Positions 3,212 to 35,111 of a stretch of 64,000 bases of DNA are shown piece after piece; the stretch's first letter is position 1; every line of letters starts with the position of its first letter. The translations under genes and the position numbers were made by a program. This DNA comes from Desulfobacterales bacterium. Lineage in GTDB: Bacteria; Desulfobacterota; Desulfobacteria; Desulfobacterales; UBA2245. Location of the stretch: positions 289,916 through 353,915 of the forward strand of contig JAXGZF010000004.1 of assembly GCA_040771865.1 (NCBI GenBank), in the 5' to 3' direction. Below the pieces are notes generated by a model, which saw only the letters and a program-made list of their open reading frames with translations, did not search any database and was not told where the DNA came from.

Positions 3212-3214
3212 ATC

Positions 3215-6218: not shown

Positions 6219-6280
6219 CTTGACCCAGCCTGGCAATGATTTGAAGTCCGGATAACCTTTTGGCGTCAACCGCAACAAAA

Positions 6281-17197: not shown

Positions 17198-17401
17198 TCA
17201 CTCCGCCTTTTCTTCTTTGCTGGTTTCAAGGTACATTACCTCGGCGCCGACCGCTTTGGCGATCTGCTCAATCTCCTGCTTCCGGATATGCTCGACGTAG
17301 AGTTTCAGATCTGCGCCGCAGACGCCGATCACCCGGAACCGGGGTTTTTTTTCACCCTTTTCAACCTTGCGACGTTCACGAACAAAAATTTTTGCACTCA
17401 T
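17198..17401 (-). CDS. Small conserved basic/acidic protein, paralog A (67 aa), function unknown
   Basis: MSAKIFVRERRKVEKGEKKPRF... aligns without gaps to the 71-aa ORF at 28500..28715, with 38 of the first 58 positions identical by manual count. Conservation of a paralog pair argues that it is a real gene. Confidence 0.55.
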   Translation of the reverse strand: MSAKIFVRERRKVEKGEKKPRFRVIGVCGADLKLYVEHIRKQEIEQIAKAVGAEVMYLETSKEEKAE

Positions 17402-17931: not shown

Positions 17932-18575
17932 GGGGGATGAAGACTGCAAGCAGGCTGTTTTCGAGACTGCATTTTAACACTCCCGTTATTTTTTCCTTCG
18001 GAGTCTGTTTTTTGAATCACCTTGCGTTCCCGCAGTGGGATGAAACAGCCTGTTTGAATGCCATTATGGTGCACATTGGCGATCACATTTTCAATGAAAA
18101 CCCAACCCCACCCTATTCATGCAAGCATGAAAAGCCCGTTTAACCCCACCCTTCCATTCGGAGAGTCGAAACATTTGTCCGCATCTGTCAGCATCGAATA
18201 CTGATGTATGCTTTCCTGCCGAATAGCATTCCAGAAATACCTTCCAACAACAGACACATCACCCATTCTTTCAAACGGTTCAGAAAAATTTCTGAGTATT
18301 CCGACTCTATTTGCCCAACAGTGAGCCTGATTTCACCGGAACATTCAATGGATGATAATTTCAAGTCATTATTGGTAATTTAGGGTATTTTTAAAACTTT
18401 GCATTGACACGGATGATCATATAAGTTTAAAAAAACACGAATATCGGCATGTATTGATGGCGTGTCCGCTGCTATAGCCTTTCAGCCGAATTGAAAAAAC
18501 AGGCGGCATGTCATCCGCGAATGGGTTTGAACCCGAGACATCTAAACCGAAGATTTTGGTTTGCGGGAGGGAAAA

Positions 18576-20585
18576 ATGAGATTTTCGTGCAAGACAGGGG
18601 TGGCTTTGATTCTCGGATGGTTCCTGGCGTTTCCGGTGCCGGGTTTTTCGAAAACAGCGGAGGAGCAGCCGGAAGCCTACACTTTGGGAGAGGTGGTGGT
18701 CACCGGAGAGCGGGAAGGCGTCGAGGCTGTGGGAACGGTCCGGGAAATTACGGCTGAGGATATTCAGCGCAATGGGGCCAGAACACTGGACGAGGCCCTT
18801 GACCTCCTGCCGGGAATTCAGGTCCGCACAGGCAATGACGGAGTTCCCCGCGTCGATATGAGGGGCTTCCGTTCCAGGCACGTACTCCTGCTGCTCGACG
18901 GCATTCCCTTCAACTCCACTTCCGACGGTCAGTTCGACCCGACGATGATTCCCACGGAAAATATCGCCAGGATCAAGATTTCATACGGAAACCATTCGGT
19001 GCTTTACGGAGAGGGCGGACTCGGCGGAGTCATCAACATCATCACCAAGAAGGGGACCGAAGGCATTCAGGGAAAGGTGTCGGGCGAAGCCTCCGAACGC
19101 AACAAATGGCTGGGCCGTTTCAACCTTTCCGGGGCAAAAGATTCGGTGGATTTCTTTCTCGGCGGCAGCCTGATGGAATCGGACGGGTACCGGCTGTCGG
19201 ATGATTTTGAAGAGACGCCCTATGAGGACGGGGGACTGAGGGAAAACAGCGACCGGAAATACGGAAATCTGTTTGCGAATTTAGGTTACAAGGCCACGGA
19301 CAGCCTGTCGCTGGGTCTTGTGTACAATTACCTGAAGGGCGAATATGGCAAGCCGCCGTCGACCATCGACAAGGCCATGGATCCGGTTTTTGCCAAGAAC
19401 CTCAAGTATGAGCGGGTGGATGACGTCGAAGGAAACAGCGGCCAAGTATCTTTCAACTGGGATAACGGATCGCCTTTGAGTCTGCGGGGTTGGGCATATG
19501 CCAACCAGCAGGACGAGGAAACCAACCGTTACGATGACGACCGGTACAACAGCCAGAAAGCCAAGGGCGCATTTCACGAGGAAGCCAGAACGACCATCTC
19601 CGGGGCGAACCTTCAGAGCGGATGGGACATGGGTTCGGCCGGAAGGCTGACGATGGGGCTCTCCCTGGCCGGTCAGGAATTTGAATCCTCCGGATATGAA
19701 ATTCTGGATAAAAAGGGAACCAAAGGGGTTTTGGCGCTGGATAAAGAGCTCGATACTTATTCCTTAGCTCTGGAATACGAGGTCAATCCGCTGGATTCGC
19801 TTGGAATCACGATCGGGTACGGGCATCACTGGCTCAACAAGGAGGAAGGCAACGACGACGATGACGGATCATTCCTGATCGGCGCCTACTATGATCTTTT
19901 GAAGGATACAAGGCTTCGGGCATCCGTTGCCAGAAAAATTCGTTTTCCGTCCATCAAGCAGCTTTACGATGCGCCCAACGGCGGCAACATCGATCTGACT
20001 ACGGAAAGGTCGATGAATTACGAACTGGGCATCGAGCAGAATCTGCCGATGAACAGCCGGCTGACGCTGACCGGATTCTGGATCGATGTGGATGATTATA
20101 TTGAAAAAAACATTTACGCATCGGATCTCTATGAGAACTACGAAGAATACCGCTTCAAGGGGTTTGAGCTGACGGCGGAAACCCGCTTCATCGAGAACCT
20201 CATGCTCAGGGCCGGATATACCTATATGGAGACGGAGGACCGTTCGGAAGGTACTTTAAAGGACGAACTTCAGTACCGCCCGGAACATAAGATCTCGCTG
20301 GAGGCAGGCTATGATTTTGATTTCGGTCTGTCGGTTTATGCGGCCCTGCTGTATGTGACCGACCAGTATTTTTATTCCGAGGAGGCTACAGTAACACCGC
20401 CGGATAACAAAAAGGCGCTCAACGACTATACCGTGGTGAACCTCAGGCTCAATCAGAAGCTGTCGAGCAGCGGTGTGAGCCTGTACGCGGGAGCGGACAA
20501 TCTGTTTGACGAAGACTACGAGGAAAGCTACGGGTCCCCTCGGGAAGGACGGACGATGTATGCCGGAATTGAATTCGAGTTCTGA
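18576..20585 (+). CDS. TonB-dependent outer membrane receptor
   Basis: Has a signal peptide and a TonB-box/plug region (YTLGEVVVTGERE...EDIQRNGARTLDEALDLLPGIQV...MRGF). A long beta-barrel ends in the aromatic terminus ...YAGIEFEF. The start at 18576 is preceded by GGGAGGG. Confidence 0.88.
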   Translation: MRFSCKTGVALILGWFLAFPVPGFSKTAEEQPEAYTLGEVVVTGEREGVEAVGTVREITAEDIQRNGARTLDEALDLLPGIQVRTGNDGVPRVDMRGFRSRHVLLLLDGIPFNSTSDGQFDPTMIPTENIARIKISYGNHSVLYGEGGLGGVINIITKKGTEGIQGKVSGEASERNKWLGRFNLSGAKDSVDFFLGGSLMESDGYRLSDDFEETPYEDGGLRENSDRKYGNLFANLGYKATDSLSLGLVYNYLKGEYGKPPSTIDKAMDPVFAKNLKYERVDDVEGNSGQVSFNWDNGSPLSLRGWAYANQQDEETNRYDDDRYNSQKAKGAFHEEARTTISGANLQSGWDMGSAGRLTMGLSLAGQEFESSGYEILDKKGTKGVLALDKELDTYSLALEYEVNPLDSLGITIGYGHHWLNKEEGNDDDDGSFLIGAYYDLLKDTRLRASVARKIRFPSIKQLYDAPNGGNIDLTTERSMNYELGIEQNLPMNSRLTLTGFWIDVDDYIEKNIYASDLYENYEEYRFKGFELTAETRFIENLMLRAGYTYMETEDRSEGTLKDELQYRPEHKISLEAGYDFDFGLSVYAALLYVTDQYFYSEEATVTPPDNKKALNDYTVVNLRLNQKLSSSGVSLYAGADNLFDEDYEESYGSPREGRTMYAGIEFEF

Positions 20586-20606
20586 AGATCAATTTTCCGG
20601 AGGTTT

Positions 20607-22019
20607 GTGTCCGTGAAACCGGTTCTGAATATGGACTGTGTCTCATTTACCTATCCCGGTTCATCCGTTCCCGCCCTCAGTGATCTGTCATTGTCCATGA
20701 CTGCGGGTGAATGCGTCTGCATCTCGGGGCCTACCGGATGCGGCAAAACCACGATGCTGATGGCGGTCCAGGGACTGTTGAAAGATGGCGACAGGCAGGG
20801 TTCGATTTCCATCCAACCGGTGCTGCCGGGGCTGGATTCCGGAATGGTGTTTCAAAATGCGGAAACCCAGATCCTGTGCAGCACGGTGGAGGATGAGGCG
20901 GCATTCTGGCCGGAAAATTGCGGAATGTCCGCAGACGATATCCGTTTCGCGGTCGAAGACGCCCTGGATGCGGTGGGGTTGGCGGGACTGCGAAATCGAA
21001 ATGTTGAAGCGCTTTCCGCCGGACAGAAACATCGGCTTACCATCGCGTCCGTCCTGTCGATGAAGCCGGGTTTGATTCTCATGGACGAACCCTGCGGACA
21101 GCTCGACGCCCCCGGAAAGCGGCGGCTCATCGAGATACTGGAGAATCTCAAACACAGGGGTCATTCCCTGCTGATCGCGGATCATGAACTGGAGCCCTAT
21201 CGATCGATTGCCGATCGATTCGTGCTGATGGAAAACGGCCGCATTCAACGGATTTCACGGGAGTTTCCTTCCGAGTACGAAATGTCCCGGGTTTTCGAAG
21301 GAATCAGCTCGGATCCGAACTCCCGGTCTTTCGGGCCTCCGGCCGTGGAGATCGGGAACCTTCAGGTGGCCGGGCCGGAAGGGAATCTACTGATCGATCA
21401 GCTGGATCTAACAGTCAGGCGCGGAGAGTTCGTTCATATTTACGGGATTAACGGATCCGGCAAGTCCACCTTTCTCAAGTGCGTCTGCGGATTTGTTCGT
21501 ACGGAATCCGGAATGATCCGGATTGCCGGAATCAATCGCCCCCGGCCCTGGCAGCTGGCAGGCAAGGCGGCCTTGCTGATGCAGAATCCGCAGCGCCAGC
21601 TCTTTGAAGACAGTGTGTTCGATGAGGTCGCCTTTGCGTTGAAAAGAACGGGAATGGGGGCGGATCAGGTTCGAGAGCGGGTCATGGAGACCCTGGAGGG
21701 TTGCGCCTTGAGTCATCTTGCCGATCGTTCTCCTCTGACTTTGAGCTTCGGCGAACAGCATCGCGTGGCGCTGGCATCCGTGATCGTTTCCGAACCGGAG
21801 GTGCTGCTGCTGGACGAGCCTTTTGCCGGTCTGGACGTCAACCGGCGACGTCAGACCATTCGGCAGATTGAAACGATTTGCCGGGACCGGAAAACGGCCG
21901 TGATAATGGCATCTCACAATCCCTTATACGCCGGGCATTGCGCAGATCAATCTCTGGTTCTGGAAAACGGCCGTTTCAGTCCGGTGGTTTTCAATAATCA
22001 GGATATGTCTCTTTCATGA
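20607..22019 (+). CDS. Duplicated ABC ATPase of the ECF/CbiO type (two fused nucleotide-binding domains)
   Basis: 470-aa ORF with two Walker A motifs (GPTGCGKTT, GINGSGKST), two signature motifs (LSAGQKHR, LSFGEQHR) and two Walker B motifs (LILMDEP, VLLLDEP). Confidence 0.85.
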   Translation: MSVKPVLNMDCVSFTYPGSSVPALSDLSLSMTAGECVCISGPTGCGKTTMLMAVQGLLKDGDRQGSISIQPVLPGLDSGMVFQNAETQILCSTVEDEAAFWPENCGMSADDIRFAVEDALDAVGLAGLRNRNVEALSAGQKHRLTIASVLSMKPGLILMDEPCGQLDAPGKRRLIEILENLKHRGHSLLIADHELEPYRSIADRFVLMENGRIQRISREFPSEYEMSRVFEGISSDPNSRSFGPPAVEIGNLQVAGPEGNLLIDQLDLTVRRGEFVHIYGINGSGKSTFLKCVCGFVRTESGMIRIAGINRPRPWQLAGKAALLMQNPQRQLFEDSVFDEVAFALKRTGMGADQVRERVMETLEGCALSHLADRSPLTLSFGEQHRVALASVIVSEPEVLLLDEPFAGLDVNRRRQTIRQIETICRDRKTAVIMASHNPLYAGHCADQSLVLENGRFSPVVFNNQDMSLS

Positions 22020-22705
22020 GTCTGAGTGCGTTTCAAGGAATCGGCTGGCAGTTCAGCGCCGTTGATTCCATGCTTCACCGAATCAGCGCGGGCTGGAAAA
22101 TGGCGGGCATGCTCGCGATGTGCTGCGCGGCTTTTATCGGGAAAAGCTTTCCAACCCTGCTGGCGCTGCTGGCTCTCAATGTTATCGGATACCGTATGGG
22201 ACGCGTGAAAGCCGTTGAGATGTGGAAGGACATGCGGTTTTTCATGATCCAGACGGTGATCGTGGTGGGGCTGTATGTTCTGCGGGATGGAATTTATGAG
22301 GGGGTGTTGCCCGGCCTGCGAACATCTCTACAGATCCTGCTGTTTTTCATGCCGGGCGCTCTTTTTCTTCGCGTGACCCCGTCTTCCCAGCTGATGAGAA
22401 GCCTGCGCCGCTGGCTGCCGGAGCGGATCGCGTTTTTCGTGTTCATCAGTTTTCGTTTTATCCCGTATTTTGCAAGGGAGATATCCGACATATCCATGGC
22501 GCAGCAGTTGCGGGGCGCCCGGATCGACAAGCGTTCCCTTGCCAATCCTAAAAACTGGCCGGGGCTGTTTCACTGTCTGATGGTTCCCCTCATGATACGG
22601 GTTATGAAAACCGCTGAGGATGTGGCGTTGTCTGCAGAGGCCAGAGGCTTTGGAAAAACCCGCCGTCCGCATTCCAGTTTTCCAGTTGCAAAGGAGTGTG
22701 AATGA
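22016..22705 (+). CDS. ECF-transporter T component / CbiQ-family transmembrane protein
   Basis: 229-aa polytopic membrane protein with the C-terminal coupling motifs ...AQQLRGAR... and ...ALSAEARGFG typical of CbiQ/EcfT. Its start overlaps the ATPase stop (ATGA). Confidence 0.72.
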   Translation: MSLSAFQGIGWQFSAVDSMLHRISAGWKMAGMLAMCCAAFIGKSFPTLLALLALNVIGYRMGRVKAVEMWKDMRFFMIQTVIVVGLYVLRDGIYEGVLPGLRTSLQILLFFMPGALFLRVTPSSQLMRSLRRWLPERIAFFVFISFRFIPYFAREISDISMAQQLRGARIDKRSLANPKNWPGLFHCLMVPLMIRVMKTAEDVALSAEARGFGKTRRPHSSFPVAKECE

Positions 22706-23271
22706 AACCATCCGACGATCATCTGCTGTGGGGAATGTTCAGCCTGCGGGAGGCCCTTTACCTGTCCTTCTGTGCGATTTTTATCGTTATCGCCAAGGCG
22801 GTTCTGCGGCTTCATCTGCATGTGACCGGCCACAGCATGGTGTTAACCATGTTTTTTATGATTCTTGCGCGGGGTTGCGTACAGCGCAAAGGCGCAGCGA
22901 CATTTGTCGGGCTGATCGCCGGCCTCATGTGTCTTGTGTTCGGAATGGGCGCAAAGTCCGGACCGCTGGTGGTTCTCAAGTTTCTTCTGCCGGGAATTGT
23001 GATCGATGTCGCTGCAATCCTGTACCCTCTGCTGGCCCAGCGCTATGTTGCCTGCATTATCGTCGGGGCGGTTGCGGCAGGCAGCCGGGTGGTCATACTC
23101 GGCCTGGTCGATTGGCTTGTCGGCATCGACCGGGAAATGATTTTGCAGCATATGGTCCTCTTGTCCGTTATGAATATCGCATTCGGTGCGATCGGAGGCG
23201 CCATGGTTCCGCCGGTGGCAAGACGTCTGGCCGCCCACGGCCTGATTCCATCCGCCGGGCCGAATCCATGA
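22702..23271 (+). CDS. Small polytopic membrane protein, candidate substrate-capture (S) component
   Basis: 189-aa ORF with about 5-6 hydrophobic helices. It is translationally coupled (ATGA overlap) to the T component. It lacks the CbiM/NikM N-terminal MHI motif. The assignment rests on context and topology only. Confidence 0.45.
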   Translation: MKPSDDHLLWGMFSLREALYLSFCAIFIVIAKAVLRLHLHVTGHSMVLTMFFMILARGCVQRKGAATFVGLIAGLMCLVFGMGAKSGPLVVLKFLLPGIVIDVAAILYPLLAQRYVACIIVGAVAAGSRVVILGLVDWLVGIDREMILQHMVLLSVMNIAFGAIGGAMVPPVARRLAAHGLIPSAGPNP

Positions 23272-23358: not shown

Positions 23359-24096
23359 ATGAGAGTATTTCTGGGATTTGACGACACCGACACGATTGAT
23401 GCGGACCGGGGAACCGGCAAGCTGTCCAGATGGTTCGGGTATGAACTGCCCGAAGAGGTCCGTCTATGGGCCGTGGTGCGCCAGCAGCTTCTGGTTCATG
23501 AGGATATACCCTACACTTCCCACAACAGTTCGGCCTGCGTGGTCATGGATACGCCCGATGGCTATCCTTCGGACCGCATCATCGACCGGGCGGTCCGCCA
23601 TCTCCAAGCTCATTATCTGGAGGGAAGCGATCCGGGGATCTGCATGGCATGCGAGGATGATCCGGGGCTATCGGAGCTGATGAATTTCGGGATTTCGTGC
23701 ACCCGGCACGTGGTTTCTCAGAAAGATGCTCTAAAGGCGGCTTCGGGCGGCCATATTCATTTGTCCGGCCATGGCGGCACCCATGACGGAATTATTGGAG
23801 CCGCCGCCGCCGTGGGCTTGACGGCATCCGGCTGGGCAGGACGCTTTATAGAATTCGGCAGGCTCCGTGAATTTCCGGATCCAGTGACCGTATCGGAACT
23901 GGAGCAAAAGCAAATCCGGGTCATGTCTCTTGAAAAAAATGCAAACCAGCCGTCTCCCGAAGATCGAGTGATGACCCATGGCTGGCTTCGTCCCCGCCTG
24001 ATCGGCGGATATCCGGTCGTGATGGTCAAACACATTCAAGAAGACCTGTGGGAAATCGTCAGCGGCAGATCCCACAAAAAGAAATCGGAGGAATGA
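23359..24096 (+). CDS. Soluble protein of unknown function; N-terminus reminiscent of the TiaS/DUF1743-type G-x-DDTD motif
   Basis: 245-aa ORF with a good RBS (GAGGAG). The N-terminus is MRVFLGFDDTDTIDADRGTGKL. It is the last gene of the receptor-ECF cluster. The similarity call comes from memory of the motif only. Confidence 0.4.
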   Translation: MRVFLGFDDTDTIDADRGTGKLSRWFGYELPEEVRLWAVVRQQLLVHEDIPYTSHNSSACVVMDTPDGYPSDRIIDRAVRHLQAHYLEGSDPGICMACEDDPGLSELMNFGISCTRHVVSQKDALKAASGGHIHLSGHGGTHDGIIGAAAAVGLTASGWAGRFIEFGRLREFPDPVTVSELEQKQIRVMSLEKNANQPSPEDRVMTHGWLRPRLIGGYPVVMVKHIQEDLWEIVSGRSHKKKSEE

Positions 24097-24360
24097 GAAG
24101 ATAAAGTTTTATCACTTCGCGGCTTTCCGTCGAACCGGCGGAGAGCCGCTCCTGGTTCTCCTTTACCGCTATGTATCTCATGACATAGTTATCTGTATGT
24201 CCGTCATCCGTAAAGGCAGCACCAATCGATCCTTCGCATTCTCGTTATAAATTATCGTTATTTGTCAGTATAAGCTATAATTAACAACTTTCTTGCAAAT
24301 TTTGAATGCCTGAGTATAGAATGTCTTGAAAATGCCTTAAAATAACAGGTGCGGTAGATC

Positions 24361-24600
24361 GTGTCAAAAACACGGATGAATACGCGGGAAGTCGCGGAAT
24401 ATTCGATGTCGCCGATAAACAAGGTCTATGTCCTAGTCAAATCCAAGCTGATTCCGGCCATGCGGATAACCGGAAAGCGGCTTTTCCCCAGAAATCTAAT
24501 TGACGAATATTCCCGGTCCGGTTTTTCCGAGGCGCGGCAGAGAAACCGGAATACGGTGCTGAATCAGAACACTTTTTTGAAAAGTCGGTGCAGGCCTTGA
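24361..24600 (+). CDS. Stand-alone excisionase/MerR-type (HTH_17-like) DNA-binding protein
   Basis: 79-aa ORF. MNTREVAEY...VYVLVKSKLIPAMRITGKRLFPRNLIDEY follows the helix-turn-helix plus wing pattern of excisionase-family HTH domains. The start is GTG 24361 or ATG 24376, and the RBS is weak. Confidence 0.5.
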   Translation: MSKTRMNTREVAEYSMSPINKVYVLVKSKLIPAMRITGKRLFPRNLIDEYSRSGFSEARQRNRNTVLNQNTFLKSRCRP

Positions 24601-24790
24601 TGGAGGTTTTCCATAACCCGGCTTTCCGTATGCGGGTCGGAGGAATGAGCGGCTACGACTTTTCCGATTCCGGACAGATTATTTGTTCTTCCACCTGAAA
24701 TCTTGGATGAAACCGGCGTGTGCCGTCAGCAAAAAGATAATGGGGGACGCATCCAGTTAAAAATTTAACGGAAGAAAGGAGAAGTATTCC

Positions 24791-25645
24791 ATGAAAAGGC
24801 TGCTTATTTGTCTGTTGATGTTTGTCGGGTTTGGGTTTCAAGAAGCGGCAAATGCCCTTGACGGCAGTCAGTTTATTCTTCTGTCCTCAACCATTGGCCC
24901 AATCGATTCCGGCATTGTCGAAGTTCTGGAAAACCAGTTTGAAAAGGAAACCGGCATTCGGGTGCGCCATGTCGGCGCCGGAACAGGGGCGGCGTTGAAT
25001 ATTGCCCGCAAAGGCAGTATCGACCTCGTGATGGTCCATGCCAAATCCCTGGAGGAAAAATTTATTCAGGAAGGGTTCGGAACCCAACGAATTCCTCTGA
25101 TGTACAACGATTTCGTTCTGGTCGGACCCGCCTCGGATCCTGCCGGCATTCGGGGAATGAAAACAGCCGCGGAAGCGCTTCGCCGGATTTCAGAGAAAGG
25201 CGTCGCCTTTATCAGCCGGGGAGACAAGTCGGGAACGAACGTGGCCGAACTGGAACTCTGGGAAAAGGCGGGGCTCAAGCCCTCTGCCCCTTGGTACGCA
25301 ATCTATGAAAAGGGGTCCGAAGGCAATTCCGCGACGTTGAAGTATGCCAGCCAGCAGGAGGCTTATACGGTTATTGACAGGGCCACCTTTCTCGCTCTAA
25401 AGGATCAGATTCAACTGGTTATCCTCGTCGAAGGCGATGAAGCCATGCTGAACTACATCAGCCTTATCCCAGTCGATCAGAAAAAATTCAAAACGGTCAA
25501 CGCGACCGACACGATGCGTTTTGTAACCTGGCTGACCGACCCGAAAAAGGGACAGGCCGTCATTCGGGACTTCGGAAAAGAAAAATACGGAGCTCCGCTG
25601 TTCTTTCCCAATTCGGAAGACTGGCAAAAGTCTAAAGGAAAATAA
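24791..25645 (+). CDS. Periplasmic tungstate/molybdate-binding protein paralog (TupA-like, divergent anion-binding motif)
   Basis: 284-aa ORF with a signal peptide, collinear with the TupA at 25767. Both share the VRHVGAGTGAAL / IAVGSGQAM block, the VHA(K)S/VHSPAAE block, DFVLVGPASDPAGI and FISRGDKSGT. The N-terminal TTTSTQDSG is replaced by SSTIGPIDSG. Confidence 0.75.
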   Translation: MKRLLICLLMFVGFGFQEAANALDGSQFILLSSTIGPIDSGIVEVLENQFEKETGIRVRHVGAGTGAALNIARKGSIDLVMVHAKSLEEKFIQEGFGTQRIPLMYNDFVLVGPASDPAGIRGMKTAAEALRRISEKGVAFISRGDKSGTNVAELELWEKAGLKPSAPWYAIYEKGSEGNSATLKYASQQEAYTVIDRATFLALKDQIQLVILVEGDEAMLNYISLIPVDQKKFKTVNATDTMRFVTWLTDPKKGQAVIRDFGKEKYGAPLFFPNSEDWQKSKGK

Positions 25646-25766
25646 CGGATTCAATTCATCATATTCAAACCTGCGCCAAAAAGGTGCGAACAAACTTGTC
25701 CATTTTGATGTATTACTTGATCAATTTAATTGAACGGATCACAAAAATTTATTAAGGAGGATGAAA

Positions 25767-26654
25767 ATGAAGCTTAAAAAGCGTACAATCTGTTACCGTT
25801 ATCTGGGATTTATTGCACTCCTGTGTCTGATCACGGGTCTGGCAAGCGTCACATCTGCTTTTGCGGCTGAACCGGCGCAGAAAAACATTATTCTGGCCAC
25901 TACGACCAGCACTCAGGATTCCGGTCTTCTGGACGCCCTGATTCCGATTTTCGAAAAGGAAACCGGTTATTTTGTCAAGACGATCGCCGTCGGTTCCGGT
26001 CAGGCCATGGCCATGGGAGAGAAGGGTGAAGCAGATGTCCTGCTGGTCCATTCACCTGCAGCGGAAAAAAAATTTATGGAAGCGCAAAACGGAATCAACC
26101 GCCGCCTCGTCATGCACAATGACTTCGTGATCGTGGGTCCGCCCGCCGATCCTGCCGGCATCAAAGGCTCCAAGACTTCTCCGGAAGCTTTTACGAAGAT
26201 TGCCGGCACCAGTTCCCTGTTTATTTCCCGGGGCGACAACTCAGGAACGCATTCCAAGGAAAAGGGGATCTGGAAAGCCGCGGGGCTTAATCCGGAAGAG
26301 CAGCCTTCGAAATGGTATCAGCAGACCGGACAGGGCATGGGCCATACCCTCAATGTCGCGGCCGAGAAACTGGGTTATACGCTCACTGACAGGGGAACCT
26401 GGCTTTCTCTGCAGAAAAACCTCGGGCTTCCCGTTCTCATGGAGGGCGACCCGATCCTGCTGAACGTCTATCACGTCATCGAGGTCAATCCGGCCAAGTG
26501 GCCGAAAGTCAACGCACCCGGCGCCCGTGCTTTCTCCGACTTCATGGTTTCGCCCGCGACCCAGAGTATCATCAAAACTTTCGGCGTGGACAAGTATGGA
26601 TCTCCTCTGTTTTTCCCGGATGCGGGCAAGAAAGTGGAGGATCTCGGGAAATAA
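25767..26654 (+). CDS. tupA: Tungstate ABC transporter substrate-binding protein
   Basis: Has a signal peptide and ILATTTSTQDSGLLDALIPIFEKETGY, the Thr-rich motif typical of TupA. Also contains FISRGDNSGTH. It is followed by a permease and an ATPase. ATG 25767 has better RBS spacing than 25761. Confidence 0.85.
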   Translation: MKLKKRTICYRYLGFIALLCLITGLASVTSAFAAEPAQKNIILATTTSTQDSGLLDALIPIFEKETGYFVKTIAVGSGQAMAMGEKGEADVLLVHSPAAEKKFMEAQNGINRRLVMHNDFVIVGPPADPAGIKGSKTSPEAFTKIAGTSSLFISRGDNSGTHSKEKGIWKAAGLNPEEQPSKWYQQTGQGMGHTLNVAAEKLGYTLTDRGTWLSLQKNLGLPVLMEGDPILLNVYHVIEVNPAKWPKVNAPGARAFSDFMVSPATQSIIKTFGVDKYGSPLFFPDAGKKVEDLGK

Positions 26655-27353
26655 ATGGATCTGATTCTTGAAGGCATCCTGAAGGCCGTAGCGCTGCTTG
26701 TTTCCCTGGATCCGGAAGTCCTGGGAATCACCGCGCTATCATTGAAAATTTCAGGAACAGCCACCCTGATCAGTCTTTTTCTTGGCGTTTCAACGGGAAC
26801 CGTGGTGGCCCTCACCCGGTTCCCGGGCCGCAAGATTGTCGTCAGTCTGATCAATACCGGCATGGGGTTGCCGCCGGTGGTTGTGGGTCTCTTTGTCACG
26901 ATCTTCCTCTGGCGAAACGGGCCGTTGGGCTTTCTGCAAATCCTCTACACGCCCACGGCGATTATTCTTGCCCAGGCGATCATTGCTACCCCCATCATCA
27001 GCGGAATCAGCCTGGCCGCGATGCAGAACCTTCCCGCCAACCTCCGTCTTCAGATCCTGGCGCTCGGGGCCACCAGACTGCAGATGCTCTGGCTTCTCAT
27101 ACGGGAAGCCCGCCTGCCCCTGCTGGCCGCCGTCATGGCCGGATTCGGCGGCATCATTTCCGAGGTGGGGGCTTCCATCATGGTGGGCGGCAACATCAAG
27201 GGCTATTCACGGGTTCTCACCACAGCCACGGTCATGGAAACGGGTCGGGGAAACTTTGACGTGGCCATTGCGCTGAGCGCTATTCTCTTGCTGCTGGCCT
27301 TTCTGATCAACTACCTGCTGACACGGATTCAGCAACGGGAGCGTCCCCGATGA
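26655..27353 (+). CDS. tupB: Tungstate ABC transporter permease
   Basis: 232-aa polytopic membrane protein with an EAA-like loop (ALGATRLQMLWLLIREARLPL), located between tupA and tupC. Confidence 0.85.
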   Translation: MDLILEGILKAVALLVSLDPEVLGITALSLKISGTATLISLFLGVSTGTVVALTRFPGRKIVVSLINTGMGLPPVVVGLFVTIFLWRNGPLGFLQILYTPTAIILAQAIIATPIISGISLAAMQNLPANLRLQILALGATRLQMLWLLIREARLPLLAAVMAGFGGIISEVGASIMVGGNIKGYSRVLTTATVMETGRGNFDVAIALSAILLLLAFLINYLLTRIQQRERPR

Positions 27354-28450
27354 CGGCCGCCAGTCCCCTTCTTCAGGTCAAAAATATTGTGGTCAAGCGG
27401 GGCGGAATTACTGTTCTGGATATCCCCGACTTTACGCTCAAGCAGGGGGAGGTTCTGTCCCTGCTCGGGCCGAACGGCTCCGGGAAATCCACGCTGCTTC
27501 TGACCTTGTCCAGCCTTTTGAAGCTGCACCAGGGCAAACTGATCTTCAAGGGCCGGGAGATTGACAGCCGCCGGAATGCGCTGGACTATCGACGGCAGAT
27601 CGCCGTCGTATTTCAGGACCCGCTTCTTTTGGATACGACGGTGCTGGACAATGTGGCTTCCGGCCTGAAAATCCGGGGAGTAGAGAATATGAAACGTTTG
27701 CGGATCGCGGAAGAATACCTGGAACGCCTGGGAATTGCCCATCTGGCCAAACGATCCGCATCCAAACTCTCCGGAGGAGAAGCCCAGAGAACCAGTATCG
27801 CCCGGGCCTTTGCGACTCGCCCCACCATCCTTTTTCTCGATGAACCCTTTTCCGCTCTGGATCCGCCCACGCGCGAAGCTTTGATCTCGGATCTCACCCG
27901 CATTCTTCGGGAAACGGACACCACGGCGGTGATTGCCACGCATGATCAGATGGAGGCCCTGCGCCTTTCCAGCCGCATGGCCATTATTCAGCAAGGAAAG
28001 ATCGCTCAGACGGGCTCTGCAGAAGAGGTGATGAATCATCCGGTTAATGAATTTGTCGCCTCCTTTGTCGGAATGGACACGGTCCTGGCCGGCAGGGTCC
28101 GGGAAAACCACGACAAGAACAGAATGATGATTGCCGTCGGCGATCGGGAGATCGAGGCCGTGGGGAATTTCCCTCCGGGAGAGCAGCTCATCTGTTGCAT
28201 TCGTCCCGAGAACGTAACTCTCTCCACGGATTCACCCGAAGAACAGAGCAGCGCTCGAAACAATTTTTCGGGCCGGATTGTGCGCATCGCACCCCACGGA
28301 CTTTTTTACCGCGTTGATCTGGACTGCGGTTTTGAGCTCACTTCTTACATCACCCGTACATCACTGGACAGCCTGGCGCTTCGGGAAGGTATGAAGGTCA
28401 AGGCCTCCTTCAAGGCCACCGCCGTTCATGTGATCCGGAAAACGACATGA
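27350..28450 (+). CDS. tupC: Tungstate ABC transporter ATP-binding protein with C-terminal TOBE-like domain
   Basis: 366-aa ORF with Walker A GPNGSGKST, signature LSGGEAQR and Walker B ILFLDEP. A C-terminal extension of about 120 aa ends ...GMKVKASFKATAVHVI, which is TOBE-like. Confidence 0.85.
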   Translation: MTAASPLLQVKNIVVKRGGITVLDIPDFTLKQGEVLSLLGPNGSGKSTLLLTLSSLLKLHQGKLIFKGREIDSRRNALDYRRQIAVVFQDPLLLDTTVLDNVASGLKIRGVENMKRLRIAEEYLERLGIAHLAKRSASKLSGGEAQRTSIARAFATRPTILFLDEPFSALDPPTREALISDLTRILRETDTTAVIATHDQMEALRLSSRMAIIQQGKIAQTGSAEEVMNHPVNEFVASFVGMDTVLAGRVRENHDKNRMMIAVGDREIEAVGNFPPGEQLICCIRPENVTLSTDSPEEQSSARNNFSGRIVRIAPHGLFYRVDLDCGFELTSYITRTSLDSLALREGMKVKASFKATAVHVIRKTT

Positions 28451-28499: not shown

Positions 28500-28715
28500 A
28501 TGGCAGGCAAAATTTTTTATCGGGAACGCCGGAAAGTCGCCGAAGGGGAAAAGAAGCCGCGGTTTACTCTCGTCGCCGTCACGGGTCTTGATCTCACCTT
28601 GTATCCGAAACACATGCGCAAACAGGAACTGGAACAGATTGCCGAAGCGGTCGGCGCGGAATTGATTCTGCTGAAAGACGTCGAAAAAGGCGAGGAAGTG
28701 GAAGTTAAGGCATAA
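28500..28715 (+). CDS. Small conserved protein, paralog B (71 aa), function unknown
   Basis: MAGKIFYRERRKVAEGEKKPRF... is a paralog of 17198..17401. It sits 49 nt after tupC and 15 nt before the Mos-like gene. AAGGAGG lies upstream. Confidence 0.55.
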   Translation: MAGKIFYRERRKVAEGEKKPRFTLVAVTGLDLTLYPKHMRKQELEQIAEAVGAELILLKDVEKGEEVEVKA

Positions 28716-28730
28716 ACGGAGGGGATTATC

Positions 28731-29561
28731 ATGGGGCTTTGGCGCGAAAGAGACGGTCGACGTCTGCATGTTAAGAGTAAACTGATGGGGGAAAGCCTGA
28801 TCAGCAAATCGTTCATAAAAAGTCTCACCGTTGCTCCGCAGCGGAGGCTTTTCCCGGATGTGAATATTATCAAGATCGGAGGCCAGTCCATCTGCGACCG
28901 GGGCGTCAAGGCCCTTCCCCCGATAATTGAAGAAATTGTGGCGAACAAGAAAGCGCACAAGATGCTCATTACGACAGGGGGCGGGACCCGCAGCCGGCAT
29001 ATTTATTCCATCGGCCTCGAGCTGGGTATGCCGACGGGCATCATTGCCAAATTCGGCAGTTCCATCTCGGAACAGAACGCATTGCTGGTGTCCACACTGC
29101 TGTCCTCCTGGGGCGGAATCAAGATCGGACATGATGAGGTCATCAAACTGTCAACCTACTTCGCTCAGGGCTGCATCCCCGTCATGCACGGGATGCCCCC
29201 CTATGATTATTTCGCTTTGCCGGCAAAAGGATGGCGCATCCCCATTCACCGAACGGATGTGGGCACCCTGATTCTGGCGGATCTGATCGGCGCACGCAGC
29301 TGCATCTACGTAAAGGATGAAGAGGGTCTCTATACGGATGACCCCAAAAAGAATTCCGACGCTAAATTTATCTCCAAAATCAGCGCGTCGGAACTTCTGG
29401 CACATGACTTTGACGATTTGATCATTGAACGGCCCTGCCTTGAGATTCTGCAGAACAGCGAGGTCATAAACAGCATTCAGGTTATCAATGGTCAGAATGC
29501 AGGCAACATCACCCGGGCATTGAAGGGTGAACATGTGGGAACCATCATTCATAAAGGATAG
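28731..29561 (+). CDS. Molybdenum storage protein subunit homolog (MosA/MosB-like, amino-acid-kinase/UMP-kinase fold)
   Basis: 276-aa ORF. IIKIGGQSICDRG, TTGGGTRSRHIYS, GMPPYDYF, HRTDVG, YVKDEEGLYTDDPKKN and GNITRALKGEHVGTIIH match my recollection of the conserved blocks of Azotobacter MosA/MosB. The length also matches. Confidence 0.75.
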   Translation: MGLWRERDGRRLHVKSKLMGESLISKSFIKSLTVAPQRRLFPDVNIIKIGGQSICDRGVKALPPIIEEIVANKKAHKMLITTGGGTRSRHIYSIGLELGMPTGIIAKFGSSISEQNALLVSTLLSSWGGIKIGHDEVIKLSTYFAQGCIPVMHGMPPYDYFALPAKGWRIPIHRTDVGTLILADLIGARSCIYVKDEEGLYTDDPKKNSDAKFISKISASELLAHDFDDLIIERPCLEILQNSEVINSIQVINGQNAGNITRALKGEHVGTIIHKG

Positions 29562-29932: not shown

Positions 29933-31051
29933 TTAGAGCTCGGCGACGATTTTGCCCGTGACGGCGGCTTCGTAGCCGGGAATCGCGTCGATCTCTCTGC
30001 GCAGCGCTGCGGACTGGAGAACGTCCAGAAGGATCTTGACCGTGGGGTGGCCGATCAAGTCGCCGGGAATGACCAGATCGCATCTGACGGCTGTAATGGA
30101 CACAAAATCCAGGCCAAAGGCTTCGGCAATGGCCCTTAATCCCAGGGCGGCATCGGCTACGTTGCAGGCAACGCGGTAGGCGCCTTCTCGGTGGGAGGTC
30201 ACCTCGTTCCGATATCCATTGATGGCGTGTGCATTCACACCGGCGCGCTGCAGACAGTCGTCCAGCAGAATCCGCAGGGCCGCGCCCGGCTCTCGGTTGA
30301 CAAAGCGAACCACGGGCCTGGCGAGATCTGCTGCGGAATGAATGCCCAGGGGGTTGCCCCTGGCCACCATCAGGCCCTCTTCCAGAAGAGAAAATCCCAG
30401 AATGCTTCCGCGCACTCCAGCCAGTTTCTGGCCGGCCAGGACCACATTGGACTCTGTTTTACCCGTGTTGTGCAGGTGGATTCCCGCCACGTGAGTCAAG
30501 CCTTCGGCCAGAGCGTTGAGGGCGCGATGAGTTGAGGCGAACCGGCAGTGTACGCGCGCATCGGGCGCCATACGGGAAACGTAATGGGCGAGGATCTCAA
30601 AGGCCGGATCGCAGCCCATCAGAATGAGGGTTTTATCGAGACAGTTCGCAGGTGAAAAAATCTGAGCGCTTTTTCCGTCCCGGGTCAACACGCCGTCCGC
30701 CGGGCGCAGTCCGAATCCAACGGACTCGGGGCCCTGCAGAGAAATACCCACCAGTCGATCACGGACCATCCCCAAAGCCAGCCGGGATGATGGCGCCTTT
30801 TGACCGTTGATTATATGGACGGGCCGTGTGTCCGGCGGTTCCTGCTCGGCGAACAGGTCTTCCACCCGGCAGTTGAAAATGCGGGCCAGCCGAAGCGCGA
30901 TGGCGGTATTGGGCAGATAGCGCCCGGATTCAATGTCGTAAACCGCCTGGCGCCGGACGTTGATTTCCTCGGCCAGCTTTTCCTGAGACCATCCCCTGGC
31001 CAGTCGGTACTGCTTGACCTTGCACGTAATGGTATTGTTTTGTCGGGTCAT
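29933..31051 (-). CDS. Transcriptional regulator: N-terminal XRE-type HTH + C-terminal periplasmic-binding-protein-like (molybdate/tungstate-type) sensor domain
   Basis: The HTH is VKQYRLARGWSQEKLAEEINVRRQAVYDIESGR. The C-terminal domain of about 270 aa resembles PBP-like domains fused to HTHs near Mo/W genes (assigned from memory of the PF12727-type architecture). The start is ATG 31051 (alternative 31078). Confidence 0.72.
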   Translation of the reverse strand: MTRQNNTITCKVKQYRLARGWSQEKLAEEINVRRQAVYDIESGRYLPNTAIALRLARIFNCRVEDLFAEQEPPDTRPVHIINGQKAPSSRLALGMVRDRLVGISLQGPESVGFGLRPADGVLTRDGKSAQIFSPANCLDKTLILMGCDPAFEILAHYVSRMAPDARVHCRFASTHRALNALAEGLTHVAGIHLHNTGKTESNVVLAGQKLAGVRGSILGFSLLEEGLMVARGNPLGIHSAADLARPVVRFVNREPGAALRILLDDCLQRAGVNAHAINGYRNEVTSHREGAYRVACNVADAALGLRAIAEAFGLDFVSITAVRCDLVIPGDLIGHPTVKILLDVLQSAALRREIDAIPGYEAAVTGKIVAEL

Positions 31052-31315
31052 AGGCCCTTTCTGTTCAAGTTTTCTCATCTATCTGATGAAATCTTATAAA
31101 ATTGTATTGACCAATTTCTTTTCGTATGCAATGAGTTTGTGTCAAATGACAATTAAAAACGTCATAATTGCTTAAATTATACTTTAAACATTGTATAACG
31201 TTATTTGGATACATATTGCAACAGCGGTTTTCAAGCGGTCAGCCCGAATGGCATCGAATATCGCAACAGATGCCGCATGTCATTCAGACTGTCTCAATGT
31301 AGAAATTCACAGGAA

Positions 31316-32041
31316 ATGAACGATATTTACAATGAATTGAGGCAAAGAGCGGTAAATGTTCTGGCGGCCCATCATCTGCTCGGAGACAAGGTGACCGTCA
31401 AAGCCCACGCACTGAGTCCGACGGAGGCCATCGGTAATCCGGAGGCAGATGATTTTCCGATTCAGAAAGGCAAGGAGCGATTGATGCAGGCGGATATTCG
31501 GGGCTCTTTGGGCCAGGCGTTCACCGATCAGTTTGGTGATTTCGAGGGAACTCTGGAGGAGATTCTGGCCGCTGCACTGAACAGCAATTACCGCCGGGCG
31601 ATTTTTGTGGCCGCTTTGAACGCCGCTTTGCGGCATCTCAAGCTGATCGACGGCACCATTCACTGCCGCGACGAAGAACCCACAAAGTGCGCCAAAGCAG
31701 TGGCGGACCATATTCAAAAACATCATGGGAACGTAAAAATTGTTCAGATCGGCTTTCAGCCGCGAATGGTGGAGTCTCTGGCTTCCCGATTCACGATTCG
31801 GGTTCTGGATATGGACCAGGACAATATCGGCGCCCGCAAGTACGGCGCAGTTATCGAATCTCCCGAGGCCGCTGATACGGCCGTGGATTGGGCTGACCTG
31901 CTGCTGGTGACCGGAACGACCCTTGTCAACGGCACGCTTCCGGCCTATTTGGGCTCAAGGCCGGTTGTCTTTTACGGAACAACCATTGCCGGAGCGGCTC
32001 ATTTGATGGGGTGGGAGCGTTTCTGCCCGCACAGCGTCTGA
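31316..32041 (+). CDS. DUF364/DUF4213-like Rossmann protein (putative heavy-metal chelation domain family)
   Basis: The start at 31316 has the RBS AGGAA. The architecture is an N-terminal alpha/beta region followed by IVQIGFQP...VLDMD...ADLLLVTGTTLVNGTL. This fits my memory of the family, with moderate certainty. Confidence 0.55.
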   Translation: MNDIYNELRQRAVNVLAAHHLLGDKVTVKAHALSPTEAIGNPEADDFPIQKGKERLMQADIRGSLGQAFTDQFGDFEGTLEEILAAALNSNYRRAIFVAALNAALRHLKLIDGTIHCRDEEPTKCAKAVADHIQKHHGNVKIVQIGFQPRMVESLASRFTIRVLDMDQDNIGARKYGAVIESPEAADTAVDWADLLLVTGTTLVNGTLPAYLGSRPVVFYGTTIAGAAHLMGWERFCPHSV

Positions 32042-32199: not shown

Positions 32200-33000
32200 A
32201 TGAAATCAAAAAAGTGGGCGTTATATTTTTTGGCAGTGGTATTGCTGGCGCTGACCGTCATAGGGCTGGGCAATTTTGCAGGAAGCAGTGCTGCTGCGGA
32301 AACCGAGCTGCTCGTATTTGCCGCTGCTTCCACCACCGATGCCATCACTGAAATCGGAGACCTGTATGCAGCCCGGAATATAGGTCGCATCAAACCCTCA
32401 TTTGCTTCATCATCCACGCTGGCCAAGCAGATTGCCAGCGGAGCGCCGGCCGATGTATTTCTTTCGGCCAATCCAAAGTGGATGGACTTTCTTGAAGAAA
32501 AAAATTTACTGTTCAAAGAGACTCGATTCGATCTCTTGGGCAACCGGATTGTCCTGATTGCACCCTTGGACAGCATGATGGGCCAGATCGATGTGAAGCC
32601 CGGATTTTCACTGTCTGCATTGCTGGGCAAGGATGGCCGTTTATCCGTGGGTGATCCGGACCATGTGCCGGCCGGCATGTACGGGAAAGAAGCCCTGCAA
32701 AACCTCGGCGTCTGGGATCAGGTCAAGGATCGTCTGGCGCCGATGAAGGATGTTCGAGCGGCCCTGGTGCTGGTGGAACGCGGAGAAGCGCCCCTGGGAC
32801 AGGTTTATGCCACCGATGCCGCTGTTTCCAAGAAAGTGCGCGTGGTGGGCACTTTTCCGGCCGACTGCCACGCACCCATAGTCTATCCTGTGGCTGCGGT
32901 GTCCGGCGGAAAGACTTCAGAGGTAAAACAGTTTATGGATTTTCTGAAATCACCGGAGGCCCGGGCGGTCTTTGAAAAACATGGTTTTGAAGTGCGTTGA
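32200..33000 (+). CDS. modA: Molybdate ABC transporter substrate-binding protein
   Basis: 266-aa ORF with a signal peptide. LLVFAAASTTDAITEI, FASSSTLAKQIASGAPADVFLSAN, VGDPDHVPAGMYGKEAL and YATDA are typical ModA blocks. Confidence 0.9.
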   Translation: MKSKKWALYFLAVVLLALTVIGLGNFAGSSAAAETELLVFAAASTTDAITEIGDLYAARNIGRIKPSFASSSTLAKQIASGAPADVFLSANPKWMDFLEEKNLLFKETRFDLLGNRIVLIAPLDSMMGQIDVKPGFSLSALLGKDGRLSVGDPDHVPAGMYGKEALQNLGVWDQVKDRLAPMKDVRAALVLVERGEAPLGQVYATDAAVSKKVRVVGTFPADCHAPIVYPVAAVSGGKTSEVKQFMDFLKSPEARAVFEKHGFEVR

Positions 33001-33698
33001 TGGATTTTTTTCACCTGACAGAGGTGGAACTGGAAGCCCTGAGGTTGAGCCTGTGGGTGTCCGGGTGGGCCGTGGCCGCCAGTCTGCCCTTTGGCATACT
33101 GGCGGCCTGGGTTCTGGCCCGCCTGCACTTTCCAGGGAAAAGCCTTCTGGACGGTTTGGTGCATCTGCCGCTGGTATTGCCTCCGGTTGTGACTGGATAT
33201 CTGCTGTTGGTGATGCTCGGCCGCAACGGAATCATCGGCGCGCTGCTGTACAAGTATCTGGGCGTTGTTTTGGCTTTTAACTGGAAAGGGGCCGCGTTGG
33301 CCGCCGCCGTCATGTCTTTCCCTCTGATGGTCCGCGCGGTTCGACTATCTCTGGAAAGTGTGGACCCTGGGTTGGAAGCCGCGGCCCGCACGCTTGGGGC
33401 CGGTCCGGTGCGTGTATTTTTTACGGTTACGCTTCCCCTGATGGCGCCGGGAATTATAACCGGCATTATTCTTGCTTTTGCGCGCAGTCTGGGAGAATTC
33501 GGTGCCACCATCACCTTTGCATCCAACATCCGTGGACAGACCCAGACCCTGCCGCTGGCCCTTTACACGCTGACCCAGGTTCCGGACGGCGAGATGGGGG
33601 CCATGCGGCTGTGCATTCTGTCGGTTTTGATCGCCATAGCCGCGCTGATATGCTCTGAAATATTGGCCCGGCGCTTTGACGCCCGAATGAAAGGATGA
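32997..33698 (+). CDS. modB: Molybdate ABC transporter permease
   Basis: 233-aa polytopic protein with the EAA loop LEAAARTLGAGPVRVFFTVTLPL. Its start overlaps the modA stop. Confidence 0.9.
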   Translation: MMDFFHLTEVELEALRLSLWVSGWAVAASLPFGILAAWVLARLHFPGKSLLDGLVHLPLVLPPVVTGYLLLVMLGRNGIIGALLYKYLGVVLAFNWKGAALAAAVMSFPLMVRAVRLSLESVDPGLEAAARTLGAGPVRVFFTVTLPLMAPGIITGIILAFARSLGEFGATITFASNIRGQTQTLPLALYTLTQVPDGEMGAMRLCILSVLIAIAALICSEILARRFDARMKG

Positions 33699-33704
33699 TT
33701 CGCT

Positions 33705-34820: not shown

Positions 34821-35111
34821 CCGGGCGTTTGAGAAATATTAAGATTCAAACCTTTCTCGGACGCAATTTGCATTGGATGCAATGCATCCGAATGTATTGA
34901 TCTTCAGCTATCCCTCTCCAATCGATTCCTGATTTCTCGATCCATTTTTTATTATGTTTTTTATTGACATCGAGGGATTGTATGATATTTAACTGTGCCT
35001 TAAATGACATATATCAGGATCGGCATATCATGACTTCATTCAGGCCGCAAATTTGGTTTTGCACCCTGATGAAATGAATCGGCAATAAATGTGTTGCAAA
35101 AGGAGTTTCCA

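Follow-up and report, generated by a model that had tools for sequence, protein, structure and literature searches.

Why should a bacterium encode two TupA-like periplasmic binding proteins in a row when only one permease and one ATPase follow them, and what is the short helix-turn-helix (HTH) reading frame just before the pair? These questions are raised by a stretch of 64,000 nucleotides from a Desulfobacterales bacterium (contig JAXGZF010000004.1, positions 289,916 to 353,915), called the window below. The upstream TupA-like protein is named A1, and the downstream one, a canonical TupA, is named A2. The features at issue are as follows.

24361-24600, plus strand: open reading frame (ORF) of 79 aa with a GTG start, matching Pfam HTH_17 and TIGR01764 'excise'
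24791-25645, plus strand: A1, a TIGP-type TupA-like periplasmic binding protein of 284 aa, assigned by family, PDB and fold matches
24884-24913, plus strand: altered anion-site motif of lobe A, SSTIGPIDSG, residues 32-41 of A1, located by alignment to the TTTS of TupA
25761-26654, plus strand: A2, canonical TupA of 297 aa with the TTTSTQDSG motif, matching PBP_like_2 and NF041772 and nesting in the [TS]TTS clade
25896-25925, plus strand: ATTTSTQDSG motif, residues 46-55 of A2, read from the sequence
26655-27353, plus strand: TupB permease (NF038017, 1.5e-78; NF041773 TupB, 8.1e-46)
27350-28450, plus strand: TupC ATPase with a C-terminal TOBE domain (ABC_tran plus TOBE matches)

The locus would serve tungsten uptake and homeostasis in a Syntrophus-like bacterium. 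Its ancestral order would have been taoR-tupA1-tupA2-tupB-tupC in one operon, with a TaoR-type regulator gene at the head. With modest confidence, we favor the reading that it is now a tup locus with a taoR relic, in which A1 is an accessory tungstate binder of weaker or shifted binding that serves TupBC together with A2.

The A1 protein and its relatives

An earlier sequence-only reading of the window had described two TupA-like proteins in tandem, followed by one permease and one ATPase with a TOBE domain. This layout was confirmed, and both binding proteins match PBP_like_2 and NF041772. The motifs SSTIGPIDSG in the upstream copy and ATTTSTQDSG in the downstream copy were found where that reading had placed them, together with the retained SRGD-SGT block, which is present in the two proteins as SRGDKSGT and SRGDNSGT. 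The remark that the upstream motif is one residue longer had to be corrected, since both motifs have 10 residues and the BLASTP alignment is gapless.

A1 and A2 are 39% identical by BLASTP. A1 belongs to the same family by its matches to PF12849 (PBP_like_2; 1.6e-33) and PDB 3LR1 (5.6e-58). The TupA model NF041772 is matched by A1 at 1.4e-49 and by A2 at 1.1e-71. The NCBIfam equivalog cut-off of this model is 400 bits, and both A1 (168.8) and A2 (241.3) are below it; because the canonical A2 falls below as well, the cut-off is non-discriminating in this lineage. The AlphaFold2 model of A1 has a predicted local distance difference test score of 84, and among known structures it matches TupA 5MY5 best, with a template modeling (TM) score of 0.89 and a root-mean-square deviation of 2.3. 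The N-terminus of A1, MKRLLICLLMFVGFGFQEAANA up to the boundary before LD, resembles a Sec signal peptide as read from its letters. Identity to A1 is 82% for the S. aciditrophicus protein and 75% for that of S. buswellii, and the A1 family is conserved across the Syntrophales.

In the TupA of Desulfovibrio alaskensis G20 (DaG20), the site is formed by T9-T11, S12, H59, R118, T124 and D170; the motif TTTS belongs to lobe A, and its Ser points into the oxyanion site (PMC5517513). In A1 the third Thr of TTTS is changed to Ile, the site-facing Ser to Gly, and the next residue to Pro. The lobe-B residues (SRGD-SGT, D-R-x-T) and the His are retained. H83, R143, T149 and D196 of A1 align to H59, R118, T124 and D170 of DaG20 TupA, and they are invariant in both the A1 and the A2 groups.

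The altered motif is not a peculiarity of one genome. The pattern S-T-I-G-P-[IV]-D-[SA]-G and an N-terminal signal sequence were present in 120/120 of the closest database homologs of A1. The same pattern was found in 87 of the 88 A1 copies in the loci, the remaining one being TTIGP. The A2 orthologs are equally uniform, with [AST]-T-T-T-S-T-Q-D-[ST]-G. Mean pairwise identity is 0.76 within the A1 group, 0.77 within the A2 group and 0.42 between them, and 42 positions, clustered around the motif, are fixed differently between the two groups. The omega value of A1 is 0.16. These data bear out the earlier view of the upstream copy as a genuine paralog whose anion-site motif has changed. They indicate, so far as sequence and model can tell, that A1 is a functional, exported and strongly constrained protein of the TupA fold.

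The relationship between the two proteins was examined in a neighbor-joining tree, whose input was collected by exhaustively searching 1.84 billion representative proteins. The T-[IML]-[GEAC]-P proteins make up a clade of their own, separate from the [TS]-T-T-S proteins, and A2 nests deep within the latter. One part of this TIGP clade consists of exported A1-type proteins, including a Firmicute-style fusion with Cu_amine_oxidN1 and a lipoprotein-like form. The other part consists of cytoplasmic proteins of 346-432 aa, in which a ModE/LysR-type winged-helix HTH (Pfam HTH_1) is fused to the periplasmic-binding-protein (PBP) domain. The view of the pair as a local back-to-back duplication was not borne out, as A1 and A2 fall in different old clades. 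By its placement in the tree, A1 is not a recent duplicate of A2; its clade is a separate one, and ModE-type regulators found upstream of tup operons form the sister group.

The ModE-N-PBP regulators P0136, P0137, P0141, P0146, P0147 and P0167 are the nearest non-exported relatives of A1, at 41-47% identity. They share with A1 the T-[IM]-[GAE]-P pocket motif and the linkage to tup genes. They differ in being cytoplasmic, without a signal peptide and fused to a DNA-binding domain, whereas A1 is exported and free-standing. In 3 of the 5 contexts that could be retrieved, such a regulator (T[IM][GAE]P) lies directly upstream of tup genes. In L176 the regulator (112-1221) is followed by TupA (TTTS, 62% identical to A2), TupB, TupC and a gene of the XRE-PBP_like type; in L177 the regulator (6001-7089) is followed by TupA (TTTS); and in L175 the regulator (2149-3231) is followed by TupB and TupC. 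The contexts of P0147 and P0136 were uninformative. The regulators of L175, L176 and L177, and P0136, P0146 and P0147, are candidate tungstate-responsive regulators. Their position ahead of tup genes is the best available evidence that the TIGP-type pocket recognizes the Tup substrate. The suggestion that the upstream copy could be a sensor-like binding protein retains some merit in this respect, as the nearest non-exported relatives are the sensor domains of ModE-type regulators next to tup genes. No description of a second, non-TTTS type of TupA or of ModE-N-PBP regulators was found in the open-access literature.

The linkage of A1 to tup genes was then compared across genomes. The canonical TupA directly adjoins A1 in 61 of the 64 Syntrophales genome loci with enough flanking sequence, usually in the order regulator-A1-A2-B-C or A1-A2-B-C. 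It also adjoins the TIGP protein in 19/28 metagenome loci, a set enriched for distant TIGP proteins that are 48-57% identical to A1. The metagenome loci include the orders A2-B-C-A1 (L095, L097, L136) and A2-A1-A2 (L135, L143, L161). The linkage of A1 to tupABC is independent of gene order. The TIGP protein is almost never the sole binding protein beside TupBC.

Two side observations concern the wider family. A third pocket variant, A-T-G-S-P-[YG]-E-L-G, defines its own clade of TupA-like domains (P0128, P0139, P0256), and one member, P0128, is a protein of 827 aa with three binding-protein domains in tandem. At L089:436-1644, a TIGP-type protein carries a fused copper-amine-oxidase N-terminal domain, which is characteristic of cell-envelope proteins in Firmicutes; downstream, to position 6472, lie a Peripla_BP_2-FecCD-ABC transporter, a TrmO-like gene and a radical-SAM gene, with no canonical TupA nearby.

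The relic ahead of A1 and the control of the operon

The 79-aa ORF matches Pfam HTH_17 at E 4.6e-6, with 27.2 bits against a cut-off of 27. Five database proteins resemble it, and three of the five are longer (101-116 aa); the C-terminal tail of these longer relatives is encoded by the window in a different frame. The tandem binding-protein genes of S. buswellii are directly preceded by a gene for a 305-aa protein with HTH_17 and PBP_like (PF12727) domains. When this TaoR-like protein was compared with 24301-24800 by tblastn, its residues 1-67 matched at 57% and its residues 265-305 at 71%. The two matches are in different frames, and nothing was matched between them. The parts of the relic are the following.

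within 24361-24600, plus strand: 5' relic of a TaoR-family gene, codons 1-67, then out-of-frame read-through to a stop
24553-24558, plus strand: deletion junction with ATGG microhomology; codons ~70-259 are gone
24573-24578, plus strand: run of six T (T6; relatives have T7), a -1 frameshift by DNA alignment
24573-24698, plus strand: 3' relic of the TaoR-type gene, residues 265-305 and the stop (tblastn, 71% over 41 residues)

The intact genes read CGG AAA ATG G/GA at codon 69 and GAC ATG G/TG CTG GAT CAG at codon 258, where the slash marks the junction. The window reads CGG AAT ACG GTG CTG AAT CAG. The deletion thus amounts to 570 nt, is in-frame, and removes about 190 codons with the whole PBP_like sensor domain. 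The T6 run is present in the window and in L006-L008, and this frameshift yields ORFs of 79 or 95 aa; T7 is present in L005 and L009 and gives an ORF of 116 aa. A1 of L006 and L009 differs at 3 of 855 nt (~99.6% identical), yet their T-run lengths are unlike. This indicates that the frame of the relic is not maintained.

The substitutions are consistent with this result. Relative to L006, the relic has 13 non-synonymous and 2 synonymous differences, with an omega of 2.2; other pairs give 0.7-2.1. For comparison, intact taoR HTH domains have values of 0.04-0.06 and intact copies 0.04-0.09, and the neighboring genes 0.05-0.20. By a binomial test, finding at most 2 synonymous among 15 differences has P = 2.5e-5 if omega is 0.16, and 0.24 under neutrality. 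From 50 intact Syntrophales copies, about 26 HTH positions are at least 95% conserved, and the relics change 7-9 of them, including W40R, W50Y/H and the helix segment L15-Q21. In about 50 of the 80 Syntrophales loci, the gene directly ahead of tupA1 is an intact TaoR-like one.

The 79-aa ORF is a deletion-plus-frameshift relic of a TaoR-type gene, without protein-level constraint. The ORF with an excisionase-type HTH does exist as first described. It is not a stand-alone HTH gene as had been supposed: it is formed by the first 67 TaoR-type codons, the last 41 lie at 24573-24695 in another frame, and about 190 codons are deleted. Relic and intact gene are homologous over these first 67 and last 41 residues and occupy the same position in related genomes. 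They differ in the deleted PBP_like sensor, the broken frame and the lost conserved HTH residues. The TaoR or 'TupR' family, with D. vulgaris DVU3193 as its type, consists of regulators of tungstoenzymes and of molybdenum and tungsten (Mo/W) transport; PMC11980592 and PMC10102598 credit it to work by Rajeev and colleagues in 2019. The earlier remark on the usual fusion of such an HTH to a PBP-like Mo/W-sensing domain was also right, as HTH_17 plus PBP_like is the architecture of TaoR (PMC11980592). DVU3193 is listed as a tungstate uptake regulator (PMC10102598). The name 'TunR' was considered for the HTH_17-PBP_like regulator and rejected, because the literature searched gives this architecture to TaoR and contains no paper that joins TunR with tungstate.

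A deletion between two ATGG repeats removed the sensor of taoR, and a later loss from T7 to T6 broke the frame. The relic represents ordinary gene decay, yet it would also be a clean case in which a paralog that shares the sensor domain but has another DNA-binding head takes the place of a regulator. The paralog in question is the following.

29933-31078, minus strand: regulator with XRE (HTH_3) and PBP_like (PF12727) domains, by Pfam match

Its sensor domain is 34% identical to the PBP_like domain of the TaoR-like protein. It is present only in the five loci with the taoR relic, namely the window and L006-L009, and its gene is transcribed divergently from a DUF364 gene and from a complete modABC. 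The XRE-PBP_like regulator is probably the functional replacement of the lost TaoR-type regulator. Regulation would have passed from taoR to this paralog a few kb downstream.

The promoter of the old operon appears to be kept. A consensus scan found one promoter-like site upstream of the relic:

24293-24322, plus strand: TTGCAA-18-TAGAAT

Other Syntrophus loci conserve this -35 element, CTTGCAA, upstream of their taoR-type genes. The TaoR-type gene and A1 are separated by 10-60 nt in most Syntrophales loci, little more than a ribosome-binding site; therefore, the regulator and tupA1-A2-B-C make up a single transcription unit whose promoter lies upstream of the regulator. The site at 24293-24322 is likely, as a putative assignment, the promoter of the whole operon. 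As a promoter-like site upstream of the regulator is kept, the relic is most simply a transcribed leader of about 470 nt, and a leader behind the old operon promoter is what it most likely is. No terminator was found on the plus strand between A1 and A2. An internal promoter between A1 and A2 was considered and rejected, since the sole promoter-like match (25761-25789) overlaps the start of the A2 ORF. No riboswitch or other known RNA was matched in Rfam over the whole window at gathering thresholds, nor in 24000-25000 at E <=5.

Several related observations were made on relics and promoters. The relic differences (24361-24573 against L005, L006 and L009) fall 9/5/1 on codon positions 1/2/3. 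This skew is the reverse of a coding pattern, although with 15 sites only it may be chance. An overlapping gene in another frame or strand was considered as its cause and rejected, because all alternative frames are full of stops. In S. aciditrophicus (CP000252.1), only the last 41 codons of a TaoR-type gene remain upstream of tupA1 (L002:5780-5902) and the head is gone; an intact TaoR-type copy lies at L002:11977-12855, downstream of a MosB-like gene. This state resembles the same process of decay and relocation, either independent or further advanced. In Smithella-type loci (for example L028, L036, L051, L067 and L080), conserved AT-rich repeats lie about 60 nt before the -35 element, upstream of taoR-type genes. 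These repeats, ..GTAAT..AAGT..GGAAT(A/T)TGGAATAATATT, abut the -35 element CTTGA(T/A)A and are a candidate TaoR-type operator. The GTAAT/GGAAT repeats are not clearly shared by Syntrophus-type promoters, the window included.

Possible roles of A1 beside TupBC

Syntrophs and other strict anaerobes depend on formate dehydrogenases, aldehyde oxidoreductases and benzoyl-CoA reductases that cannot do without tungsten. The uptake of tungsten is currently described with a single ultra-high-affinity receptor, TupA, whose tungstate binding is picomolar and selective for tungsten over molybdenum. Characterized examples are those of Desulfovibrio alaskensis G20 (5MY5), Geobacter sulfurreducens (3LR1), Eubacterium acidaminophilum and Campylobacter jejuni (Cj1540). 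A1 is like them in fold, with the TM score of 0.89 to 5MY5 given above, in 37-42% identity, in being exported and encoded in a tupBC operon, and in the equivalents of His59, Arg118, Thr124 and Asp170. It differs by STIG and then Pro in place of the hallmark TTTS, by its clade apart from all [TS]TTS proteins including A2, and by usually occurring in addition to a canonical TupA, not instead of one.

A1 has probably retained tungstate binding, since its pocket type is also that of regulators of tup operons and molybdate is covered by a separate modABC. This complete modABC, about 4 kb downstream of the tup genes, had been overlooked at first. The loss of two hydroxyl donors in lobe A suggests that binding by A1 is weaker, more reversible or shifted in selectivity relative to the picomolar TupA. 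A1 keeps the Arg/Thr/Asp/His half of the pocket, and Ser-Thr-Ile-Gly-Pro stands in the other lobe in place of Thr-Thr-Thr-Ser. Alongside A2, A1 would hand its ligand to the single TupBC and so widen the concentration range or the chemical range of uptake. Some ABC importers are served by several binding proteins; HisJ and ArgT, for instance, share HisQMP, and PstS and OppA occur as multiple paralogs. The tup locus is like them in having two paralogous exported binding proteins with a single permease and ATPase set. It differs in that such paralogs are usually close duplicates, whereas A1 and A2 are about 40% identical and from different old clades, and in that the sharing of TupBC is presumed.

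Several points weigh against this picture. For A1, docking to TupBC is suggested by gene linkage, and no binding, transport or expression data for TIGP-type proteins were found in the open-access literature. Orphan TIGP-type genes occur in L074, L144, L146, L147 and L163; the one in L074 adjoins an aldehyde:ferredoxin oxidoreductase gene and the one in L144 adjoins unrelated genes. Another TIGP copy, in L089, lies beside a Peripla_BP_2-FecCD-ABC transporter. The clades come from a rough neighbor-joining tree without support values. For the relic, an intact taoR could be present outside the window, elsewhere in the genome, and the relic itself might still matter as DNA, RNA or even protein. It is diverged by 7%, against 11-20% for other intergenic DNA, a comparison that is weakened either way because the locus is a recombination mosaic among the compared strains. 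Constraint on the relic at the DNA level was considered in view of the lower divergence and is kept only as a weak hint, since the locus is such a mosaic.

The altered pocket could also mean that A1 is a transport binding protein for another ligand than A2, so that a single TupBC imports two chemically different substrates. The candidates are molybdate, vanadate, another tetrahedral anion, and thiotungstate or thiomolybdate, which are larger and softer and form in sulfidic anoxic habitats. The changes are exactly in the lobe-A pocket, where two hydroxyl donors became Ile and Gly-Pro, and the A1 site is predicted to be less polar and probably roomier. Small pocket changes in the R118 mutants of TupA switch tungsten/molybdenum selectivity, and the A1 family comes from anoxic digesters, sediments and wetlands. 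However, molybdate import is already covered by the complete modABC 4 kb away, and cytoplasmic regulators with the same pocket type precede tup operons, which points to a pocket that recognizes the Tup substrate itself. We consider this explanation unlikely.

An equally unlikely explanation is that A1 delivers nothing to TupBC and acts as a periplasmic accessory, either as a tungstate buffer or scavenger that loads TupA or as a sensor-type periplasmic signaller of tungstate. The orphan and L089 copies fit a TupBC-independent role: L074 and L144 hold orphans, and the L089 copy adjoins an unrelated FecCD-type transporter with its own binding protein. That TIGP proteins are almost never the sole binding protein next to TupBC, and that their closest non-exported relatives are sensor domains of transcription factors, agrees with such a role as well. 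Against it, no membrane sensor (histidine kinase or chemoreceptor) lies next to A1 in the window or in the loci inspected. In most cases A1 lies within the tup operon, tens of bases from its neighbors, which is the standard layout for extra binding proteins that share a permease.

With regard to the relic, the 79-aa ORF or its 116-aa allele could be a working, TaoR-derived HTH_17 protein that lacks a sensor, binds DNA constitutively and still controls the operon. Excisionase-type HTH proteins of about 79 aa do occur on their own. The start codon and a Shine-Dalgarno-like AGGTG are retained, the score is still at the Pfam HTH_17 threshold, and the region is less diverged than other intergenic DNA. 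The sequence differences speak the other way: omega is about 1-2, 14 of the 15 differences are at codon positions 1 and 2, and both conserved tryptophans and the conserved helix segment are lost. The T6/T7 state varies among strains that are about 99.6% identical in the next gene, and S. aciditrophicus has the tail without the head. We regard a working small protein as improbable. Least credible of all is the view of A1 as a functionless tandem copy of TupA, redundant and in decay; its TTTS motif looks degenerate and automated pipelines give A1 and A2 the same name, but the low omega, a group as conserved as that of A2, a variant motif nearly invariant across an order-level group and beyond, and the separate old clades all contradict it.

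The favored reading, A1 as an accessory tungstate binder, can be extended to the whole clade, though tentatively and with more doubt than for the locus itself. TIGP-type proteins would then be a widespread and so far unrecognized second class of tungsten binding module, whose pocket has a different chemistry through the loss of two hydroxyl donors, with either a reversible low-affinity tungstate site or a site for another tungsten species, such as thiotungstate. The low-affinity version would be suited to sensing (in the ModE-N fusions), to periplasmic buffering and to hand-over to TupA/TupBC. If either version is true, syntrophs and other anaerobes would rely on two receptors for tungsten uptake, not on TupA alone. 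Uptake would gain a step of selectivity or affinity through a second receptor type, conserved to the same degree and usually accompanying tupABC, and the same step would follow if the TIGP pocket is reused by regulators ahead of tup operons. The finding bears on Mo/W homeostasis and on the physiology of anaerobes, and TIGP proteins would offer a naturally tuned scaffold for tungstate sensors. It also concerns annotation: pipelines call A1 and A2 alike 'tungstate transport system substrate-binding protein', and gene callers take the relic for a gene. Nothing relevant to A1 of S. aciditrophicus (Q2LPG8/ABC76044) or to tungstate uptake in Syntrophus was found in the open-access literature.

Neighboring genes

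The genes around the tup operon are listed below.

23359-24096, plus strand: p245, a 245-aa TiaS-N / methanogenesis-marker-11-like protein, function unassigned
28500-28715, plus strand: 71-aa ORF (s71), directly preceding the MosB-like gene
28731-29561, plus strand: MosB-like protein of 276 aa, homolog of the beta subunit of the molybdenum storage protein (PDB 2OGX_B, 1.6e-68)
31205-32041, divergent from the XRE-PBP_like gene: DUF364 ('putative heavy-metal chelation') gene
32200-34820, beyond the DUF364 gene: complete modABC
35091-36785, after modABC: MoeA-domain fusion protein

The tup cluster and the stretch with the XRE-PBP_like, DUF364, modABC and MoeA-fusion genes form a Mo/W island of roughly 17 kb. 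The MosB-like protein also matches the alpha subunit of the molybdenum storage protein (E 8.5e-47), and it is the single such homolog after tupC. The pair of s71 and the MosB-like gene is kept downstream of tupC in Syntrophus loci. In other Syntrophus genomes p245, there of roughly 240 aa, lies between tupC and the 71-aa gene; in the window it has moved upstream. The trio of p245, s71 and the MosB-like gene recurs beside tup operons in several orientations, and it is a possible module for the storage of tungsten. The 71-aa gene has another copy, with 66% identity, at 17228-17401 on the minus strand.

At 18561-23271, directly before p245 and the tup cluster, lie genes for a TonB-dependent receptor and then, after it, for a double-ATPase, a T-component-like protein and a small membrane protein. 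This layout is that of an ECF-type or cobalt-type ABC transporter, and it is also present in L009. Between 23171 and 30700, comparison of the window with L006 and L009 reveals a recombination mosaic: these two loci differ by 0-0.5% across A1 but by 3.5-13% in the relic, tupA2-tupC and the regulator. Upstream of p245, the genes of L006 are entirely different, and those of L009 are common with the window.

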